From the IMG/VR virus record IMGVR_UViG_2700989162_000004, positions 1 to 22,618 of that record: 22,618 nucleotides of DNA. The stretch is one strand, 5' to 3'. Made by a program: the position numbers and the translations under genes. Shown here in pieces: positions 15,365-22,618 of the stretch (the first letter of the stretch is position 1; each line of letters begins with the position of its first letter). The notes under the pieces are model-generated. The model was not told where the DNA came from. It was given only the letters and a program-made list of their open reading frames with translations, and made no database searches. The stretch is from a virus. Its lineage: Duplodnaviria > Heunggongvirae > Uroviricota > Caudoviricetes.

Positions 15365-16238
15365 GAACTTTCAGGTAGGTATTATCGTTAAGCAGGAAAT
15401 CAAATCCCTTTTTGTGCCAGACGGTTCCGCGTTGATGGTTTGGGCGCTCTTCGAACATCCATCGGCAATTTTCGCCAACGTAGCTCAAATAATTTCTCCA
15501 GTCCTGCATCGTGAACCCATGCCCGTCAAGCTGGCGGGTTATCACTCCGGCTTTGCGCCAGAACGTTCGGATCTGGTTTTTACGCTTGTCATTCAGTGCG
15601 CGGATTCTTGGAGCTTCAGGAAGGATTTCGTGGTAAGCATCGACAACATCCTGACAGCTGACGGAAGGTTTTTTCTTGTCAGACTTTTTGTCTGCTGTGG
15701 CACTCTCTAATACGTCAGTATTAGAGATAATATTATTATATTCTTTATCTGTGGTAATTTGCTGGTAATCTGCTGGTACAGCATTGCTTACAGGCATTGG
15801 TATTGCTGGCTTTGAGGTGGTAATTTGCTGGTAATCTGCTGGTACAAAATTTGACTGATAATCGTCATATTTCTCTACTGAGAAAACTGAGAATTTACCG
15901 TGTGAAACCCAGTCAATCATGCCGAGTTTTTTGAACTTTCTAAGCAGGTACTGAACGCGATCTGGTTTGAGTCCTGTTTCAAACGCCAGAGAGTTTCTAC
16001 CGCCAAGTAGCTTCCCTCTGCCTACCAGAATTTCTCCTGCGTCAGTCATTACATACTCAGGCGTATGCTTTGCTTTGAGGATTAAGTGAACCCACAGATG
16101 CGCTGCTTCTGCATCCTTGTAAAACGGCACATCCATAATTTTACGGTGCAGCAAGGCATACCCCTTACCGCTGCTTTGATGCGGTTGTTGTAGCCTTCTG
16201 GCCTCTCTGGCTTCGGCTAGATTAGATATGTTACTCAT
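15339..16238 (-). CDS. Replication initiator, lambda O-like replisome organiser
   Basis: 299-aa ORF directly upstream of the helicase gene; iterons and AT-rich block inside the gene, as for ori-lambda within O; contains the duplicated peptide [10 protein letters not shown]. Confidence 0.7.
15751..15846. repeat. Origin-like iterons inside the initiator gene
   Basis: Two exact 30-bp copies of GTGGTAATTTGCTGGTAATCTGCTGGTACA (15751-15780 and 15817-15846), each holding two overlapping 13-bp units GGTAAT(T/C)TGCTGG; AT-rich block ATAATATTATTATATTCTTTATCT immediately adjacent at 15727-15750. Confidence 0.7.
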
Positions 16239-16377
16239 GACCTTTCTCCTTCTGCATCAGCTTCACTTTTTCCAACTCAGCCCGGAATCGACCAGGCTGC
16301 TTGAAGCTGGACAGGAAGCGATCACGTAGTATGTGTTTGTGAATTTTGTCCTGGTAAGGACTGAGTTGTTTTGTCAT
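16231..16377 (-). CDS. Small ORF between cII-like and initiator genes (P22 orf48 position)
   Basis: Manual translation [48 protein letters not shown] (48 aa); stop overlaps the initiator start. Confidence 0.5.
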
Positions 16378-16409
16378 AATTACTCCTGTGGATTGATCCA
16401 GTAATTCCC

Positions 16410-16706
16410 TCAGAATTGCATATCAATTTGCTTAAAATCCTCGGTGGCGGCCGGGGATTTTTTCTTTGTGATTTCATCAAGCGCATACTTAAAAGCCCTG
16501 CTAATCGGACTGATGTCTGATGCCATTCCGAAAGCACACAAGACCGAAGCAATAAATCTCCAGTCCGTTCTGCTTATCTTCGATTCATGACAGCCAATCA
16601 TCTTTGCCAGACCGCGCTGGGTAAGCGTTGACAGGTTGATGAGTAAATCAGTTTCAGCGCGATCAATTTCTCGCTGTGTTGGCTTGCTGTAGCTTGCTTG
16701 TGCCAT
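16410..16706 (-). CDS. cII: CII-like transcriptional activator (P22 c1 position)
   Basis: 98-aa ORF; helix-turn-helix region ...[18 protein letters not shown]... and KKSPAATE...QIDMQF C-terminus resembling lambda CII from memory. Confidence 0.8.
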
Positions 16707-16774
16707 TTGTTAATTTTCCTATATTGATATTGAGTTATAGCGGCACACCCAATGGATTTGCCGCTGATGTTTGC

Positions 16775-16814
16775 TCACCCGGTTAGAGGTGAAAGGCCAG
16801 AACTGTTAAAGAGC
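16775..16814 (-). promoter_or_regulatory. nutR: boxA plus boxB hairpin
   Basis: Minus strand boxA TGCTCTTTAACA (16804-16814) followed by a hairpin with CTAACC in the loop (16775-16792); lies between cro and cII-like. Confidence 0.6.
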
Positions 16815-16821
16815 AATTTGC

Positions 16822-17007
16822 TTATGCCGCTTGGCGGTAAGCACTTTCTTGATACTTCAGGGCGCCAGCTGTAACGATTTCCAATCGATAGGCGTCTTTC
16901 TCTGGGATAACTTCTTTCCACTGAGAGACTGCTGCATCGCTAATGCCTAGTGCTTTAGCAACAGCACGCTGGGTTCCGAAGTGGTCAATAACATCTTTTT
17001 TGTACAT
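16822..17007 (-). CDS. cro: Cro repressor, P22-type
   Basis: 61-aa ORF MYKKDVIDHFGTQRAVAKALGISDAAVSQWKE..., essentially P22 Cro as I recall it. Confidence 0.9.
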   Translation of the reverse strand: MYKKDVIDHFGTQRAVAKALGISDAAVSQWKEVIPEKDAYRLEIVTAGALKYQESAYRQAA

Positions 17008-17087
17008 AGACTCGCTCCGAAATTAAAGAACACTTAAATTATCCACCAAAGGAATCTTAAGTCAAGTTTATTTAAGATGTCTTAACT
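17008..17087. promoter_or_regulatory. Divergent OR operator / pR-pRM region
   Basis: 80-bp gap between divergent cro and c2; holds TTAAGA..TCTTAA-type inverted repeats, e.g. ATTTAAGATGTCTTAACT at about 17063-17080. Confidence 0.65.
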
Positions 17088-17738
17088 ATGAATACACAAC
17101 TGATGGGTGAGCGTATTCGCGCTCGCAGAAAAGAACTCAAGATTAGGCAGGCTGCCCTTGGCAAGATGGTTGGCGTGTCTAATGTTGCTATTTCCCAATG
17201 GGAGCGATCTGAAACTGAGCCCAATGGCGAAAACCTATTGGCCTTAGCCAAGGCTTTGCAGTGCTCCCCTGATTACCTGTTGAAAGGAGAGGATAGTCTT
17301 TCAAACATTGCCTATCACAGCAGGCATGATCCAAGAGGTTCGTATCCTCTAATTAGTTGGGTAAGCGCAGGATGTTGGATGGAAGCTGTAGAGCCATATC
17401 ATAGGCGTGCAATAGATAACTGGTACGACACAACGGTAGATTGTTCTGAAGACTCTTTTTGGCTCGACGTTAAAGGCGATTCAATGACTGCCCCGGCAGG
17501 ACTGAGTATTCCTGAGGGGATGATTATTCTCGTCGACCCAGAAGTCGAACCACGTAATGGAAAGTTGGTAGTCGCCAAACTTGAAGGAGAAAACGAGGCG
17601 ACATTCAAAAAGTTAGTTATTGATGCCGGTAGAAAATTCCTGAAACCACTCAATCCACAATACCCAATGATTGAAATCAATGGGAACTGTAAAATCATTG
17701 GCGTTGTCGTTGATGCCAAGCTAGCAAACCTTCCTTAA
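17088..17738 (+). CDS. c2: Prophage repressor, P22 c2-type (LexA-like self-cleaving)
   Basis: 216-aa ORF MNTQLMGERIRARRKELKIRQAALGKMVGVSNVAISQWERSE..., near-identical to P22 C2 as I recall it; HTH N-domain and S24 peptidase-like C-domain. Confidence 0.95.
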   Translation: MNTQLMGERIRARRKELKIRQAALGKMVGVSNVAISQWERSETEPNGENLLALAKALQCSPDYLLKGEDSLSNIAYHSRHDPRGSYPLISWVSAGCWMEAVEPYHRRAIDNWYDTTVDCSEDSFWLDVKGDSMTAPAGLSIPEGMIILVDPEVEPRNGKLVVAKLEGENEATFKKLVIDAGRKFLKPLNPQYPMIEINGNCKIIGVVVDAKLANLP

Positions 17739-17758
17739 GGGGCTTTCGCCCCTTTTTT
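17738..17758 (+). terminator. Intrinsic terminator immediately after c2
   Basis: AGGGGC-TTTC-GCCCCT followed by TTTTTTAT. Confidence 0.65.
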
Positions 17759-17827
17759 ATTTCCCGTTAAAAATCAAAGACAAACTAAATTCACGCCCAT
17801 AAAATTAAGTTTTCTTCAAAAATGCAC

Positions 17828-17856
17828 TTGACCAATAAATTAAGAAGTCTTAAATT
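17828..17856 (+). promoter_or_regulatory. pL-like promoter overlapping an OL operator
   Basis: TTGACC-(17 nt)-TAAATT; the spacer and -10 contain the operator-like inverted repeat AATTAAGAAGTCTTAAATT. Confidence 0.55.
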
Positions 17857-17902
17857 TAAGCCATCAGCAGGACGCTGGAAGCCAAACGGAACAGATTGGC
17901 AG

Positions 17903-17942
17903 GCTCTTTAACATCGACGGACTCTCAACCTAACCGTTGAGA
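17903..17942 (+). promoter_or_regulatory. nutL: boxA plus boxB hairpin
   Basis: boxA GCTCTTTAACA (17903-17913), then hairpin TCTCAAC-CTAACC-GTTGAGA (17923-17942); loop sequence shared with the nutR hairpin. Confidence 0.65.
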
Positions 17943-18052
17943 CCAGAACTTGAGTGGTTTTGGGGATGGCGCGAATTGCAGCTGCAAGACAGCGATCGAG
18001 AAGATAAGCACCTCGACGCGTCATGCGCCAAAGCCACTTAAAGGAGACCATC

Positions 18053-18358
18053 ATGGTAACCATTGTCTGGAAAGAATCCAAAGGTACGGCAAAAAGCCGC
18101 TACAAAGCTCGCAGAGCAGAACTTATTGCCGAGCGACGCAGTAATGAAGCACTGGCGCGAAAAATTGCGCTAAAGCTCTCTGGTTGCGTCAGAGCAGACA
18201 AAGCAGCATCGCTAGGATGCCTTTGCTGCAAGAAGAAAGAAGAAGTCGTTCGAAAAAATAGAAGTATTTATTACAAAGATTCAAACCCATTAGGAAACAA
18301 AATACATGCAGTCCAAAAAATAAAATTGTACAGTAAACTACCGTACGGTGCTTATTGA
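18053..18358 (+). CDS. N: Antiterminator N, phage-21-type arginine-rich motif
   Basis: From the internal Met: MVTIVWKESKGTAKSRYKARRAELIAERR...; GTAKSRYKARRAELIAERR matches the phage 21 N arginine-rich motif as I recall it; AGGAG Shine-Dalgarno; the ORF-track start at 18023 is probably too far upstream; C-terminal half AT-rich. Confidence 0.75.
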   Translation: MVTIVWKESKGTAKSRYKARRAELIAERRSNEALARKIALKLSGCVRADKAASLGCLCCKKKEEVVRKNRSIYYKDSNPLGNKIHAVQKIKLYSKLPYGAY

Positions 18359-18360
18359 GT

Positions 18361-18699
18361 ATGCTTATGGTGAAAAAGACTATTTATGTTAATCCTGACC
18401 GCGGACAAAACAGAAAAGTATCTGATAGAGGTCTTACATCTCGAGACAGGAGGAGAATAGCGAGATGGGAAAAAAGGATAGCATATGCATTAAAAAACGG
18501 TGTAACACCTGGATTTAATGCTATAGATGATGGCCCTGAATATAAGATTAATGAAGACCCAATGGACAAAGTTGACAAAGCATTAGCAACACCATTTCCT
18601 CGCGATGTCGAAAAAATTGAAGATGAAAAATATGAGGATGTAATGCACAGAGTTGTTAATCACGCTCACCAACGAAATCCAAATAAAAAATGGTCATAG
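18361..18699 (+). CDS. Hypothetical protein after N, AT-rich
   Basis: ORF overlaps or abuts the N stop (the track uses TTG at 18355; first ATG is 18361); basic N-terminus, acidic C-terminus; followed directly by an intrinsic terminator. Confidence 0.5.
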   Translation: MLMVKKTIYVNPDRGQNRKVSDRGLTSRDRRRIARWEKRIAYALKNGVTPGFNAIDDGPEYKINEDPMDKVDKALATPFPRDVEKIEDEKYEDVMHRVVNHAHQRNPNKKWS

Positions 18700-18719
18700 C
18701 CCACTTCGGTGGGTTTTTT
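18700..18719 (+). terminator. Intrinsic terminator (tL1-like)
   Basis: CCCACC-GAAG-GGTGGG type hairpin (cccacttcggtggg) followed by TTTTTT. Confidence 0.7.
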
Positions 18720-18832
18720 ATTGTCTGAACAAACCTAATTTACTACCGCAAGCCACGCAGTGAAATGGGTGTGACTTGTGTTGGTCGCCAGAAAATGAAA
18801 TTAGGCAGCAAACCACTTATTTGAGGTGATAT

Positions 18833-18919
18833 ATGGAAGAAGAATTTGAAGAGTTCGAAGAGCATCCTCAGGATGTGATGGAACAATACCAGGACTATCC
18901 GTATGACTACGACTATTGA
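18833..18919 (+). CDS. Candidate 28-aa highly acidic peptide
   Basis: ATG preceded by GAGGTG at a 7-nt spacing; MEEEFEEFEEHPQDVMEQYQDYPYDYDY; bracketed by intrinsic terminators. Confidence 0.35.
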   Translation: MEEEFEEFEEHPQDVMEQYQDYPYDYDY

Positions 18920-18991
18920 TAAAAATCAATGGTGTGGACAATACGAACGACGGCAATGATTTCCAGAGAACTTGGTAAACAGAACAACAAG

Positions 18992-19017
18992 GCTGCCTAA
19001 TGGCAGCTTTTATTTTT
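18992..19017 (+). terminator. Intrinsic terminator
   Basis: GCTGCC-TAAT-GGCAGC followed by TTTTATTTTT. Confidence 0.65.
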
Positions 19018-19046
19018 GCCATAAAAAACAGAATAAACACTGCTCT

Positions 19047-19074
19047 GTGTATTCATTCCAACGAGTGAATACAC
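19047..19074. other. Perfect 9-bp inverted repeat with 10-nt loop
   Basis: GTGTATTCA-TTCCAACGAG-TGAATACAC; no U-tract after it; intergenic. Confidence 0.4.
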
Positions 19075-19136
19075 GGAGCAATGTCGCTCGTAACTAAACA
19101 GGAGCCGACTTGTTCTGATTATTGGAAATCTTCTTT

Positions 19137-19162
19137 GCCCTCCAGTGTGAGGGCGATTTTTT
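19137..19162 (+). terminator. Intrinsic terminator-like hairpin upstream of the 122-aa gene
   Basis: GCCCTC-CAGTGT-GAGGGC then GA and TTTTTT. Confidence 0.55.
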
Positions 19163-19182
19163 ATCTATGAGGATATGAATAG

Positions 19183-19551
19183 ATGTCAAACATCAAAAAA
19201 TACATCATTGATTACGACTGGAAAGCATCAATAGAAATTGAAATCGACCATGACGTAATGACAGAGGAAAAACTTCACCAGATTAATAATTTCTGGTCAG
19301 ACTCTGAACACCGACTCAATAAACACGGCTCTGTATTAAATGCTGTATTAATCATGCTGGCGCAACATGCTCTGCTTATAGCAATTTCAAGCGACTTAAA
19401 TGCATATGGTGTTGTGTGTGAGTTCGACTGGAATGATGGAAATGGTCAGGAAGGATGGCCTCCAATGGATGGTAGCGAAGGAATAAGAATTACCGATATC
19501 GATACATCAGGAATATTTGATTCAGATGATATGACTATCAAAGCCGTCTGA
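19183..19551 (+). CDS. Hypothetical strongly acidic protein in the early-left operon
   Basis: 122-aa ORF with GAGGA Shine-Dalgarno; many D/E and few K/R; occupies the ral/sieB-equivalent position between N and cIII. Confidence 0.6.
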   Translation: MSNIKKYIIDYDWKASIEIEIDHDVMTEEKLHQINNFWSDSEHRLNKHGSVLNAVLIMLAQHALLIAISSDLNAYGVVCEFDWNDGNGQEGWPPMDGSEGIRITDIDTSGIFDSDDMTIKAV

Positions 19552-19627
19552 GCGCTGCGTTACCGCATACCAATAACGCTTCACTCGAGGCGTTTTTCGT
19601 TATGCAATAAAACAGAAGGAGCATCCT

Positions 19628-19798
19628 ATGCAACAGTTCGCTATTGCAGGGGCGGCATCGGTTCGCCCTTTCAACCCGATTTTATCGGTACAGCATTCAC
19701 GAAAAAACATTTTAACCGGAGCAGACTTTAAACAACCAAGAATGAAAAGTTTGCTCGAAAAGCTTTGGGATATTTTGAAACAACAAGGCCGTCCATGA
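19628..19798 (+). CDS. cIII: CIII-like protein (absent from the ORF track, below its length cutoff)
   Basis: Manual translation MQQFAIAGAASVRPFNPILSVQHSRKNILTGADFKQPRMKSLLEKLWDILKQQGRP (56 aa); MQ-AIAG N-terminus and L-DIL-Q-G-P C-terminus resemble lambda CIII from memory; AAGGAG Shine-Dalgarno. Confidence 0.65.
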   Translation: MQQFAIAGAASVRPFNPILSVQHSRKNILTGADFKQPRMKSLLEKLWDILKQQGRP

Positions 19799-19953
19799 GT
19801 TTTACAGATAACTGGTCAGACGAAGAATTCATTCGTCATATGAAAGAATTAATCGGTAACGAAGGAGATATTCATGTCACTTGCAACCACAGTGAAGGAG
19901 AGCAGGTTACAGAGACGCATGTACACGCAGAAAGCTCTCTGGTATCGCCATAA
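19795..19953 (+). CDS. Small hypothetical protein at the kil-equivalent position
   Basis: 52-aa ORF MSFTDNWSDEEF... whose ATG overlaps the cIII stop (ATGA). Confidence 0.45.
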   Translation: MSFTDNWSDEEFIRHMKELIGNEGDIHVTCNHSEGEQVTETHVHAESSLVSP

Positions 19954-20054
19954 TGGCGACCGCGAAGGAATGCGGGTATGCCTTAATTTGTCCCGAGTCG
20001 AAGTATTAAATCAGCGTTATTTTCTTGGGCCGTGTCCATTCTGAGATCAAACAT

Positions 20055-20660
20055 ATGAGCAAAGAATTTTATGCAAGGCTGGCAGCCATTCAGGAGAATC
20101 TGAACGCGCCAAAGAATCAGTACAACTCATTCGGTAAATATAAATACAGAAGCTGCGAAGACATTCTTGAAGGCGTTAAGCCGTTACTGAATGGCCTGTT
20201 TTTATCAATCAGCGATGAAGTTGTGTTGATTGGTGATCGGTATTACGTGAAAGCAACGGCAACTATTACTGATGGCGAAAACAGTCATACAGCAACCGCT
20301 CTTGCACGAGAGGAAGAAAGCAAGAAAGGAATGGATTCTGCACAAGTTACGGGAGCTACAAGCTCTTATGCACGCAAGTATTGCCTCAATGGTTTGTTCG
20401 GCATTGATGATGCGAAAGATGCAGATACCGACGAGCATAAACATCAGCAGAACGCAGCAGCAAAGCAATCAAAACCATCACCTACACCTGAACAGGTTCT
20501 AAAAGCATTCACTGACGCAGCATTGCAGAAAAACACCGTGGAAGAGCTTAAACAGGCGTTCGCCAAAGCGTGGAAGATGCTCGAAGGCACACCGGAGCAG
20601 CACAAAGCGCAGGACGTTTACAACATCAGACGAGACGAATTAGAAGGAGCGGCTGCTTAA
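20055..20660 (+). CDS. erf: Erf single-strand annealing recombinase (P22 Erf-like)
   Basis: From the internal Met: MSKEFYARLAAIQENLNAPKNQYNSFGKYKYRSCEDILEGVKP..., close to P22 Erf from memory; the ORF-track start at 20025 is probably too far upstream. Confidence 0.9.
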   Translation: MSKEFYARLAAIQENLNAPKNQYNSFGKYKYRSCEDILEGVKPLLNGLFLSISDEVVLIGDRYYVKATATITDGENSHTATALAREEESKKGMDSAQVTGATSSYARKYCLNGLFGIDDAKDADTDEHKHQQNAAAKQSKPSPTPEQVLKAFTDAALQKNTVEELKQAFAKAWKMLEGTPEQHKAQDVYNIRRDELEGAAA

Positions 20661-21043
20661 TGGCACATTCGATTACTGTAAGACTAAACAAGCCCGCAAG
20701 AGAGTTTCAGGCCGGGGAAAATATCGGATTCAACATCCGTGCTGGCGTTCAGTATTACGATCGCCAGACAAAAAAGAAAGAATGGACAAACTACAGCGCC
20801 GTTGTATTTGCCAAGCCGGGAGCGCAAGCGGATTACTACCGTAGTGTTCTTGTTGAAGGTGGCATTGTAGAAATTACCGGAGAAAACATCAGGGTTGATG
20901 TTTATCAGGGGCAAAATGGTCAATCAATCACTCTTGAATTACTGAATGCAAAGATTGGATTTGCAACCTCAGGAAACAGCCAACAGCAGCAAAGTAGCAA
21001 TCATCAAAATCATCCTGAATACGACGATTCAATTCCCTTCTAA
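20660..21043 (+). CDS. ssb: Single-stranded DNA-binding protein (phage SSB)
   Basis: 127-aa ORF with ATG overlapping the erf stop and AGGAG upstream; Q-rich linker and C-terminal tail ...YDDSIPF like the E. coli SSB DDDIPF tail. Confidence 0.7.
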   Translation: MAHSITVRLNKPAREFQAGENIGFNIRAGVQYYDRQTKKKEWTNYSAVVFAKPGAQADYYRSVLVEGGIVEITGENIRVDVYQGQNGQSITLELLNAKIGFATSGNSQQQQSSNHQNHPEYDDSIPF

Positions 21044-21066
21044 AGTAGCAACATAAGGATTCCATT

Positions 21067-21360
21067 ATGCCAGCGCCTCTGTATGGTGCGGATGCCCCGC
21101 GCCGCTGTTCCGGCAATTCCGTATCGGAGGTGCTGGATAAATTCAGAAAAAACTACGATCGGATAATGTCGCTACCGCAGGAAACGAAAGAGGAAAAGGA
21201 ATTTCGCCACTGTATATGGCTTGCAGAGAAAGAAGAACGCGAGCGAATTTACCAGACATCAATCCGACCATTCCGCAAAGCCACATATACCCACTTCCCT
21301 GAAATTGACCCGCGCCTGCGTAATTACCGCTCACGCTATGGCGCTATCAGTAATGACTGA
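21067..21360 (+). CDS. abc2: Abc2-like anti-RecBCD protein (tentative)
   Basis: 97-aa [34 protein letters not shown]...; same length as P22 Abc2 as I recall it and correct position after erf. Confidence 0.5.
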
Positions 21361-21370
21361 GGAATTTACC

Positions 21371-21535
21371 ATGAGAGGACTTGCATACAACCCCGGCATT
21401 CTTCCGGCAGAAATGATTATTCGCCAACGCGTAAAGCCAATGCCATCGAGAGAGGAATTGCTTAAGAGAAATTCTTTTCCATCAGTGAATCAAAACAAGT
21501 ATCTGAATGCGATGTTGCGGAGTGGGAAGAAATGA
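21371..21535 (+). CDS. Small hypothetical protein
   Basis: 54-aa ORF from the Met of [15 protein letters not shown]...; stop overlaps the next start (ATGA). Confidence 0.4.
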
Positions 21536-22014
21536 AACAAATGACACTAATTGAGATGGATGGTTTTCTGAAAGGTAAATGCATCCCACGAGATTTAAAG
21601 GTTAACGAAACAAACGCTGAATATCTTGTGCGTAAGTTCGGTGAACTTGAATCAAAACTAGAAACGGCGTTGCGGGAGTGTCGTTCTGCTGGAATCACGA
21701 TTGATAACCTTGAGGCTAAATGCGCGAAGATGGCTGCTGAAAATACCTCACTTAAGCAATCTGAGAAGGAATTTAATGACTTTTGTCGTGAGGAGTTTAG
21801 CGAATGGGAAGATGATGTTACTGAAACTCCAGCCACCGATGCTTTCCTGGCTGAAGTACGGGCGCAGGGGGTAGAGATGTACGCAGATAACCTCGACAAC
21901 GGAGCAGACGACGCAGAACGAGGTGGTTTTGATTATGCCGTTAAGTTTCTACGCAGTGAAGCATCTAGTGTACGTTTGTTCGCCGACCAGCTTCGCAAAG
22001 GAGGCAACCAGTGA
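21532..22014 (+). CDS. Hypothetical acidic protein
   Basis: 160-aa ORF, translationally coupled on both sides; no motif I recognise. Confidence 0.55.
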
Positions 22015-22592
22015 GCAAGATTGACTATCAGGCACTGCGTGAGGCGGCAGAAAAAGCAACGTGTGGTGAGTGGTCGCTCGAATATGGAGAGGGCCAATTT
22101 GATGGTGATGATGCGCTAATTCATCGTGACGTTGTTGGATATCTTCCCATTTGCAGAATTGAAGGAGCGCATCCTGAAAGCGGTTTCGATGAAGATTTCC
22201 AAATAGAACAGCAGGCCAATGCTGAATTCATCGCCGCAGCCAATCCAGCTACCGTCTTGGCGCTGCTGGATGAGCTGGAAAGAAACCAGCAATACATCAA
22301 ACGCCGTGACCAGGAGAACGAGGAGATTGCGTTAACGGTAGGGAAGCTGCGTGTTGAGCTGGAAGGCAAAGACAAGCTGATTGCAGAGCTTGGAAAACAA
22401 TGCGCCGAATGGGAGCGAAAAGCATTAAGCAACTTTGAAGAGTGTGCTGCGATGGCTGAACGTATCGAAGAGTTGCAGACAAAATCTGCACCAGATTCGT
22501 TTGGCATCATCGGTGAAAATATTCGAACACAGGATAATCGAATAACGTCAGTGGATTTGCCCCTATATTTCCAGACATCTGTTATCACTTAA
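22011..22592 (+). CDS. Ead/Ea22-like protein
   Basis: 193-aa ORF starting [22 protein letters not shown]..., typical of the prophage Ead/Ea22-like family as I recall it; GTG start preceded by AGGAGG and overlapping the upstream stop. Confidence 0.65.
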   Translation: MSKIDYQALREAAEKATCGEWSLEYGEGQFDGDDALIHRDVVGYLPICRIEGAHPESGFDEDFQIEQQANAEFIAAANPATVLALLDELERNQQYIKRRDQENEEIALTVGKLRVELEGKDKLIAELGKQCAEWERKALSNFEECAAMAERIEELQTKSAPDSFGIIGENIRTQDNRITSVDLPLYFQTSVIT

Positions 22593-22618
22593 CCCATTAC
22601 AAGCCCGCTGCCGCAGAT

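Follow-up and report, generated by a model that had tools for sequence, protein, structure and literature searches.

When three small genes at the far end of a phage operon overlap one another, stop codon to start codon, do their products work together? The question is raised by a stretch of DNA of 22,618 nucleotides (nt) from a virus of the Caudoviricetes (IMG/VR record IMGVR_UViG_2700989162_000004, positions 1 to 22,618), which as a whole we call the window. Its positions 21371-22592 hold three open reading frames (ORFs) on the + strand, at 21371-21535 (54 amino acids, aa; ORF1), 21532-22014 (160 aa; ORF2) and 22011-22592 (193 aa; ORF3), and an initial annotation of the sequence had proposed that they are co-translated and act together. 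Reading the sequence confirms these ORFs and the two 4-nt overlaps of stop and start codon that link them, ATGA at 21532-21535 and GTGA at 22011-22014. Our analysis suggests that their products nevertheless do not make up one unit. The best explanation as a whole, to which we give a probability of about 0.72, is that the three ORFs are accessory genes of the pL (early-left) operon, that ORF2 is a member of the EaE/Oad2 family, that ORF3 is an ead gene broken by the insertion sequence IS2, and that there is no obligate complex of the three proteins.

Results

Co-occurrence of the three genes

Co-occurrence was counted in two sets of loci, one anchored on DUF2737, the family of ORF1 (80 viral loci, 66 of them non-redundant with at least 2.5 kb downstream), and one anchored on the N-terminal domain (N-domain) of Ead, the family of ORF3 (80 loci, 74 with enough upstream DNA). 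Around DUF2737, abc2 lies upstream in 66/66 non-redundant loci and the N-terminal module (N-module) of ORF2 follows directly in 65/66. An EaE-type C-terminal module (C-module) occurs in 43 of the same 66, an Ead N-domain somewhere downstream in 49, and the arrangement of the window, in which an EaE C-module is followed directly by Ead, in 15. Seen from the Ead side, DUF2737 is present in 49/74 loci (and missing from 25), an EaE C-module in 39/74, and none of the neighbours tested in 15/74. Every locus of this second set that has the N-module also has DUF2737, and in some of its loci Ead or another gene stands directly after DUF2737, without the N-module. The named phages likewise split the set: lambda has ea22 and, in its exo-xis region, no annotated abc2, DUF2737 or EaE gene, and in HK446 and HK75 DUF2737 and an EaE-like gene are present but Ead is absent downstream of them.

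The trio is thus frequent but facultative, and only the link from DUF2737 to the N-module is near invariant. In the co-occurrence across prophages, which the initial annotation had offered as a check, an Ead N-domain lies downstream in 49/66 loci but directly after an EaE C-module in only 15/66. We find no support for joint action of the three, given this rarity of the exact adjacency, the 15/74 Ead loci without a partner, the split sets of lambda and HK446, and the report that Oad2, the relative of ORF2 discussed next, works alone.

The middle gene belongs to the EaE/Oad2 family

The family of the middle gene had been missed. ORF2 (21532-22014, + strand; 160 aa, isoelectric point (pI) 4.6) matches PHROG 614 (E = 1e-61) and aligns end to end with gp27 of phage HK446, that is Oad2, at 54% identity (BLASTP, E = 5e-59; 53.9% with E = 3e-47 by tblastn). 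Its equivalents are HK620 hkaH and HK75 gp28, to the second of which it is 90.6% identical by tblastn (145/160 residues), and its central and C-terminal parts resemble P22 EaE (64% over 58 residues). A constant N-module (residues 1-66) is followed by a variable cassette (67-97), a conserved motif, a variable segment and a conserved end, ...DQLRKGGNQ, and residues 67-97 and 113-150 are unlike Oad2 and match HK75 gp28. As in HK446 and HK75, the gene lies directly after DUF2737, with a 4-nt overlap, in a recombination/anti-RecBCD locus.

HK446 gp27 was found in a genomic library as sufficient to relieve both the toxicity and the defence of P2 OLD, and it reportedly attaches to OLD directly and keeps the tetramer from being activated (bioRxiv 10.64898/2026.07.10.737580). 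The same study relates Oad2 to P22 EaE, describes occasional fusions to HNH or EaD/Ea22 proteins, and reports that a homologue from HK75 is insufficient to inhibit OLD defence. A BLASTP comparison of HK75 gp28 with HK446 gp27 gives 54% identity, and since this equals the figure that the preprint gives for its HK75 homologue, HK75 gp28 is the homologue meant. Because the variable segments of ORF2 are of the HK75 type and not of the Oad2 type, ORF2 probably does not inhibit P2 OLD itself. Oad1 is an unrelated vibriophage protein. The accessory-gene screen of Silas et al. mentions abc1 and abc2 and does not mention EaE, EaD, Ea22 or HK620.

The initial annotation had called the middle protein acidic with a predicted coiled coil. 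The acidic character stands (33 D/E against 22 K/R), and the helical or coiled-coil character is hinted at by a low-confidence AlphaFold2 model with four helices (predicted local distance difference test, pLDDT, 60) and by the Pfam search, in which no family rose above threshold and relaxed thresholds returned sub-threshold coiled-coil families only (ZapB and bZIP matches). Searched against BFVD with Foldseek, the low-confidence model had no match at E ≤ 0.001, and the sequence matched the PDB at chance level only (E = 0.23).

The last gene is interrupted by IS2

The 193-aa ORF at 22011-22592 (+) matches Pfam Ead_Ea22 (PF13935) over residues 2-152 at 114.1 bits, against a cut-off of 27, and its N-terminal 88 residues alone reach 69.5 bits; over residues 1-123, the N-terminal and coiled-coil region, it is 44% identical to lambda Ea22. 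The family name given to it at the outset is therefore sound, but the reading frame is not a native 193-aa protein. Sequence comparison identifies it as a chimera, an ead gene apparently cut by IS2 after codon 180. Window positions 22540-22618 match annotated IS2 copies at 96-97.5% (4206 E. coli records), a string search puts the start of the IS2 end at 22552, and a three-way alignment of the window, an intact ead gene and an IS2 copy switches right after 22551. One IMG/VR contig (L009) is 100% identical to the window over the 6.2 kb compared up to 22551 and then continues into an intact 298-aa gene, which occupies 5641-6537 of L009. The window thus holds a 5' fragment of ead (22011-22551, +; 180 codons and 1 nt) that encodes the N-terminal domain, a long predicted helix and a linker, followed by the terminal 67 nt of an IS2 element of the IS3 family (22552-22618), placed by alignment to IS2 copies and with its transposase genes on the opposite (-) strand. 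In one locus (L002) the IS2 transposase coding sequence, on the minus strand, adjoins this IS2 end.

The 193 residues are made up of 180 native ones, 13 encoded by IS2 (VDLPLYFQTSVIT) and a TAA stop that is also IS2-encoded, ending at 22592. Residues 1-180 are identical (100%) to the intact 298-aa allele, which occurs in Shigella flexneri and has close variants on hundreds of E. coli contigs. The C-terminal domain, which spans residues 181-298 in the intact allele, is lost, and only the intact allele has the three-part Ead architecture. The AlphaFold2 model of intact Ead, of low confidence (pLDDT 45), has a long helix at 79-159; if this helix is right, the cut lies in the linker before the C-terminal domain. 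The product of ORF3 would be at most an N-terminal domain and a coiled coil with a 13-residue IS2 tail, without the C-terminal domain. This exact fusion protein occurs on no more than 2 contigs and is annotated as WP_025745452.1 of Shigella flexneri; the exact ORF is present in NCBI assembly GCA_040495455.1, on a contig that ends 32 nt past it, and this accounts for the end of the window. Among the complete E. coli genomes of the collection searched, none spans the ead-IS2 junction.

Intact Ead matched the PDB at chance level only (E = 0.19-0.37, including STY4665 for the C-terminal domain), its C-terminal domain matched nothing in Pfam at relaxed thresholds, and NCBIfam gave no match for any of the proteins searched. 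ORF3 lies downstream of erf and abc2, and where relatives have the gene intact, DUF551, further small genes and an excisionase-like gene come after it.

Ead/Ea22 had been described as functionally unassigned, a statement that is now dated, as Ea22 of lambda and Shiga-toxin (Stx) phages has been reported to be pro-lysogenic and tetrameric (PMC7093339, PMC10834534), and as the EaE family has an anti-OLD member. When ea22 is deleted in these phages, lysogens form less often, fewer hosts survive and induction is faster (PMC7093339; PMC10834534). The protein has an N-terminal region, a coiled coil and a variable C-terminal domain, with no known partner or mechanism (PMC10834534), and the C-terminal domain of lambda Ea22 is reported to be inactive by itself (PMC7093339/PMC10834534).

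Conserved junctions and translational coupling

How much do the overlaps themselves imply? Both were read directly from the + strand, ATGA joining the stop of the DUF2737 gene to the start of the EaE-like gene and GTGA joining the stop of the latter to the start of ead. The ATGA junction is found in 80/80 related loci, 77/77 of those with a complete downstream ORF having the overlap. The junction after the gene in the EaE position is a 4-nt overlap in 64/76 loci, whichever gene comes next, and the later junctions are of this kind in 63/413, an approximate count from a naive gene caller. In the operon of the window itself, 4 of the 10 junctions examined are 4-nt overlaps.

Each gene has a Shine-Dalgarno (SD) sequence of its own, GAGGA 7 nt before 21371 for ORF1, GGAG 9 nt before the ATG at 21532 for ORF2, and AGGAGG 6 nt before the GTG at 22011 for ORF3, so the overlaps do not make coupling obligatory. 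The co-translation that had been proposed thus keeps its basis, in that the overlaps are real and conserved, but loses its necessity. The last of these sites lies within ORF2, whose C-terminal DQLRKGGNQ codes for the AAAGGAGG SD sequence, 6 nt upstream of the GTG, and for the start codon of the following gene. The overlaps are conserved module junctions, through which translation may be coupled to some extent and expression ratios fixed. Such coupling, though plausible, does not bind ORF2 to Ead in particular.

The first junction lies inside a conserved block of DNA (about 21300-21650, +; measured as ungapped identity) that comprises the 3' end of abc2, all of the DUF2737 gene and about the first 40 codons of ORF2. 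Among 72 distinct related sequences, identity to the window is 94-100% over this block, although the loci were picked by DUF2737 identity and only the flanks are therefore unbiased; it falls over about 21650-21710, down to 58% and then 50%, and places a mosaic boundary at about 21650.

Mosaic architecture

The proteins on either side of these junctions are themselves mosaics. The 66 distinct proteins encoded after DUF2737 share, in 65 cases, an N-module of about 43-66 residues, which is followed by several coil types, at least 25 central segments or cassettes, and several C-modules, among them the QLRKGGNQ type, a type ending in HWMPLPEPP and the Ead C-terminal domain. PHROG 368 joins the two families, its N-terminal half matching ORF3 residues 1-134 and its C-terminal half ORF2 residues 36-160. 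Conversely, a 235-aa protein of HK022 consists of the EaE/ORF2 N-module, a coil of the lambda Ea22 type and the C-terminal domain of the intact 298-aa Ead. Its sequence looks like that of a recombinant of the two neighbouring genes, formed through their coiled-coil regions. On the Ead side, lambda Ea22 and P22 EaD have no detectable similarity to intact Ead beyond the N-terminal/coiled-coil region, apart from the C-terminal end, where all three finish in AGI(R/K)(I/V)KGE. ORF2 and ORF3 are best seen, on these alignments, as two tandem members of one shuffling architecture and not as mutually needed subunits.

The 235-aa protein is encoded by a single gene directly after DUF2737 (5162-5869 in L042, the HK022 locus; also in L027). 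The conserved gene ends, AGIRIKGE/AGIKVKGE and the QLRKGGNQ of EaE-like genes, coincide with the junction to the next gene. In locus L046 the gene after DUF2737 (5162-5467) retains only the first 15 codons of the N-module, fused to what by eye is apparently the C-terminal part of a tyrosine recombinase/integrase; this fusion is probably a deletion of the whole ea region.

The first gene encodes a DUF2737 protein

ORF1 (21371-21535, +; 54 aa, pI 11.0) matches Pfam PF10930 at 110.5 bits against a cut-off of 25. Its equivalents are HK620 hkaI, HK446 gp28 and P22 orf56, to which it is 77% identical. In the literature searched, DUF2737 is named once, in a single paper. Across 83 distinct DNA versions the pooled ratio of nonsynonymous to synonymous polymorphism (pN/pS) is 0.215 in frame and 2.7 and 1.3 in the other two frames, and synonymous sites are saturated relative to P22. 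The low in-frame ratio beside those of the other frames indicates that ORF1 is a real coding gene, evidently under purifying selection.

Genomic setting

The window is an HK620/P22-like (Lederbergvirus-type) prophage from Shigella. Its closest phages are HK620 and HK633, and HK620 matches 63% of it at 96.5% identity. From 17088 the + strand encodes a cI/C2-type repressor, an N-like gene, DUF2528, Erf, a 127-aa protein resembling a single-stranded-DNA-binding protein (SSB) and Abc2, with Cro and CII genes on the opposite strand. The early-left placement made by the initial annotation is thus borne out by the repressor, Cro, CII, N-like, erf and abc2 genes, and the trio is the distal accessory part of the pL operon, after gp33-like, erf, SSB-like and abc2 genes. 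The abc2 gene itself (anti-RecBCD protein 2; 21067-21360, +) matches PF11043 at 209.6 bits and PHROG 656, encodes a protein 93% identical to P22 Abc2, and is separated from ORF1 by a 10-nt gap. A promoter and terminator scan of 19800-22618 gave nothing above shuffled background, so the three genes lie within one transcription unit, although the terminator scan also failed to recover tL3, which is annotated inside HK620 hkaI. An Rfam scan of 16000-22618 found no family.

A close homologue of gp33 of HK446 and HK75 lies at 19795-19953 (+), inside an ORF at 19765-19953; its sequence begins MSFTDNWSDEEFIR, and its C-terminus is unlike that of HK446 gp33. A 56-aa ORF at 19874-20044, tried as the homologue, was ruled out (4/56 identical), the true one being in another frame. 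The protein gp33 has been described as able to trigger the toxicity of P2 OLD and, possibly, as a modulator of RecBCD (bioRxiv 10.64898/2026.07.10.737580). The window holds the whole block of gp33, erf, SSB-like gene, abc2, DUF2737 and EaE-like gene. Between erf and abc2, where HK75 has a true SSB, the 127-aa protein (20660-21043, +) has no Pfam family and ends in ...PEYDDSIPF, which we take to resemble the acidic C-terminal tip of bacterial SSB (DDDIPF). Further upstream in the + strand operon, positions 18699-19183 (483 nt) have no sizeable + strand ORF and a 79-aa ORF on the minus strand at 18801-19040; HK620 has an opposite-strand gene close by, hkaP, which comes just after hkaQ and bears a putative superinfection-exclusion annotation.

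Discussion

What, then, would these genes do? By analogy with Oad2, we suggest that ORF2 may be an anti-defence protein that protects the phage from an OLD-type abortive-infection nuclease, one that would be set off by the phage's own RecBCD inhibitors or modulators, such as Abc2 (at 21067) and the gp33 homologue (19795-19953). In such a scheme the variable cassettes would set the target specificity of ORF2. Its conserved 3' end (QLRKGGNQ) carries the SD sequence and start codon for whichever gene comes next. We regard an anti-defence role against an OLD-type nuclease that answers phage RecBCD modulators as tentative, with odds approaching even. Presumably the three proteins are in any case no obligate complex; this we infer from the facultative co-occurrence of their genes.

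Several points weigh against our preferred explanation or parts of it. The locus samples are the best 80 matches per query, biased to close relatives and without phylogenetic correction. The anti-defence role is drawn from 54% identity to one member described in a single preprint, and HK75 gp28, at 91% identity the closest relative tested, reportedly does not suffice to inhibit OLD defence. The phenotype reported for Ea22 in lambda and Stx phages is pro-lysogenic and not anti-defence (PMC7093339). The insertion is read from one junction only; the second end of IS2 and what is left of ead on the 3' side are beyond both window and contig. Finally, the structure models are of low confidence (pLDDT 60 and 45) and the fold search was empty, so there is no structural support for any mechanism.

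How do other explanations compare? Co-translation of the three overlapping genes, with products that form one functional unit or complex, as first proposed, is in keeping with the conservation of the 4-nt overlaps (77/77 and 64/76), with an Ead N-domain downstream of DUF2737 in 49/66 loci, and with the fusion of EaE and Ead modules in single proteins (PHROG 368, HK022), which can hint at a shared pathway. But the exact adjacency is found in 15/66 loci only, 15/74 Ead loci have no partner, lambda Ea22 has no annotated partners, HK446 and HK75 have no Ead after the EaE-like gene, the gene in that place is interchangeable while the junction stays, Oad2 alone is reported sufficient (bioRxiv 10.64898/2026.07.10.737580), and the Ead gene of this window is disrupted; we consider such a unit very improbable and already largely refuted by the co-occurrence data. 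A smaller unit has more in its favour. The basic DUF2737 protein could bind or work with the acidic N-module, the ATGA fixing their ratio and the variable remainder giving specificity, and indeed the N-module follows DUF2737 directly in 65/66 loci, always with ATGA, every Ead-anchored locus with the N-module had DUF2737, the charges are opposite (pI 11 vs 4.6), and both proteins are conserved at the protein level. However, the linkage is equally explained by one conserved block of DNA serving as a recombination joint in mosaic phages, some loci have Ead or another gene right after DUF2737 without the N-module, and gp27 without gp28 (DUF2737) is reported sufficient against OLD (bioRxiv 10.64898/2026.07.10.737580). 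Thus a two-gene unit seems to us doubtful, and we are just as hesitant about a partnership of DUF2737 with ORF2 as read from charge, fixed position and coupling to the N-module.

The junctions may also have no regulatory meaning, the overlaps and conserved gene ends being features of compact genomes or recombination linkers of mosaic lambdoid phages, with each gene translated from its own SD sequence. All three genes do have a recognisable SD sequence at 6-9 nt, 4/10 junctions of the operon are -4 overlaps, and mosaic breakpoints coincide with the edges of conserved blocks; yet the two junctions are far more conserved (100% and 84%) than the later ones (15%), which also fits selection for coupling. 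We hold this to be quite possible, somewhat short of an even chance, and the linker and coupling views do not exclude each other. A role of EaE-like and Ead/Ea22-like proteins in the lysis-lysogeny decision instead of anti-defence, for which the ea22 deletion phenotypes in lambda and Stx phages (PMC7093339; PMC10834534), the 44% identity of ORF3 to lambda Ea22 over residues 1-123 and the shared operon position speak, seems unlikely to us, since Ea22 has neither a known mechanism nor a known partner (PMC10834534), the one member of the EaE branch with a defined biochemistry inhibits OLD, and the Ead copy here has no C-terminal domain. Moreover, OLD reportedly prevents lysogenisation and induction too (bioRxiv 10.64898/2026.07.10.737580), so that a pro-lysogenic phenotype could be secondary. 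Somewhat speculatively, EaE-like and Ead/Ea22-like proteins might form one cassette-swapping anti-defence family, in which a constant N-module (possibly with DUF2737) and a coil present interchangeable cassettes or C-terminal domains, each neutralising a different variant of an OLD-type or RecBCD-guarding sensor. If this were true, which we would not expect, the pro-lysogenic effect of Ea22 would be a side effect and the window allele, of the HK75 type, would target another defence variant.

Our preferred explanation, accessory pL genes with an EaE/Oad2 member in the middle and a broken ead at the end, is of modest significance and describes no new kind of system. It does allow the unnamed middle gene to be linked to the EaE/Oad2 anti-defence family, and it shows that RefSeq WP_025745452.1, named "ead/Ea22-like family protein", is really an IS2-truncated fusion that should be flagged as disrupted. 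The map of constant and variable modules could guide work on the specificity of inhibitors against OLD-type nucleases.

Comparison with known phages

The arrangement is already known, being annotated in the HK620 record and, in looser form, in P22, and the families are known as well. In HK620, hkaJ-hkaI-hkaH-hkaG (AF335538, unknown ORFs) have the same order of abc2, DUF2737, a 160-aa protein and an Ead-like protein, with the same two 4-nt overlaps, at about 96% DNA identity over window positions 21054-22375, and hkaH falls in the same 90% cluster as ORF2. However, hkaG is intact, with 238 aa and another C-terminal part, whereas the window copy, 298 aa if intact, is cut by IS2. In HK446, gp28-gp27 are a DUF2737 gene and an acidic homologue joined by a 4-nt overlap, downstream of gp33, erf, gp31 and abc2; gp27 is nearly identical to ORF2 over residues 1-60 and shares the conserved motif and the DQLRKGGNQ end, but the two variable segments differ (those of the window being of the HK75 type), an extra gene, gp29, lies between abc2 and DUF2737, and there is no Ead gene downstream.

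The resemblance to P22 and lambda is more partial. P22 has abc2-orf56-eaE-orf45-eaF-eaD at the same operon position, and EaD has the coiled-coil region of ORF3; unlike in the window, the N-terminus of EaE differs, its gene overlaps orf56 by 13 nt, and two genes lie between eaE and eaD. Lambda Ea22 shares with ORF3 the N-terminal and coiled-coil region and the three-part plan, and with the intact allele the AGIRIKGE tail, but its C-terminal domain, for which there is a nuclear magnetic resonance structure (PMC10834534), is unrelated, an insertion of about 44 residues in the N-terminal domain separates the two, and the C-terminal domain of the window copy has been removed by IS2. The 235-aa protein of HK022, finally, starts with the ORF2 N-module after DUF2737 and ends with the C-terminal domain of intact ORF3, so that HK022 has one gene where the window has two.

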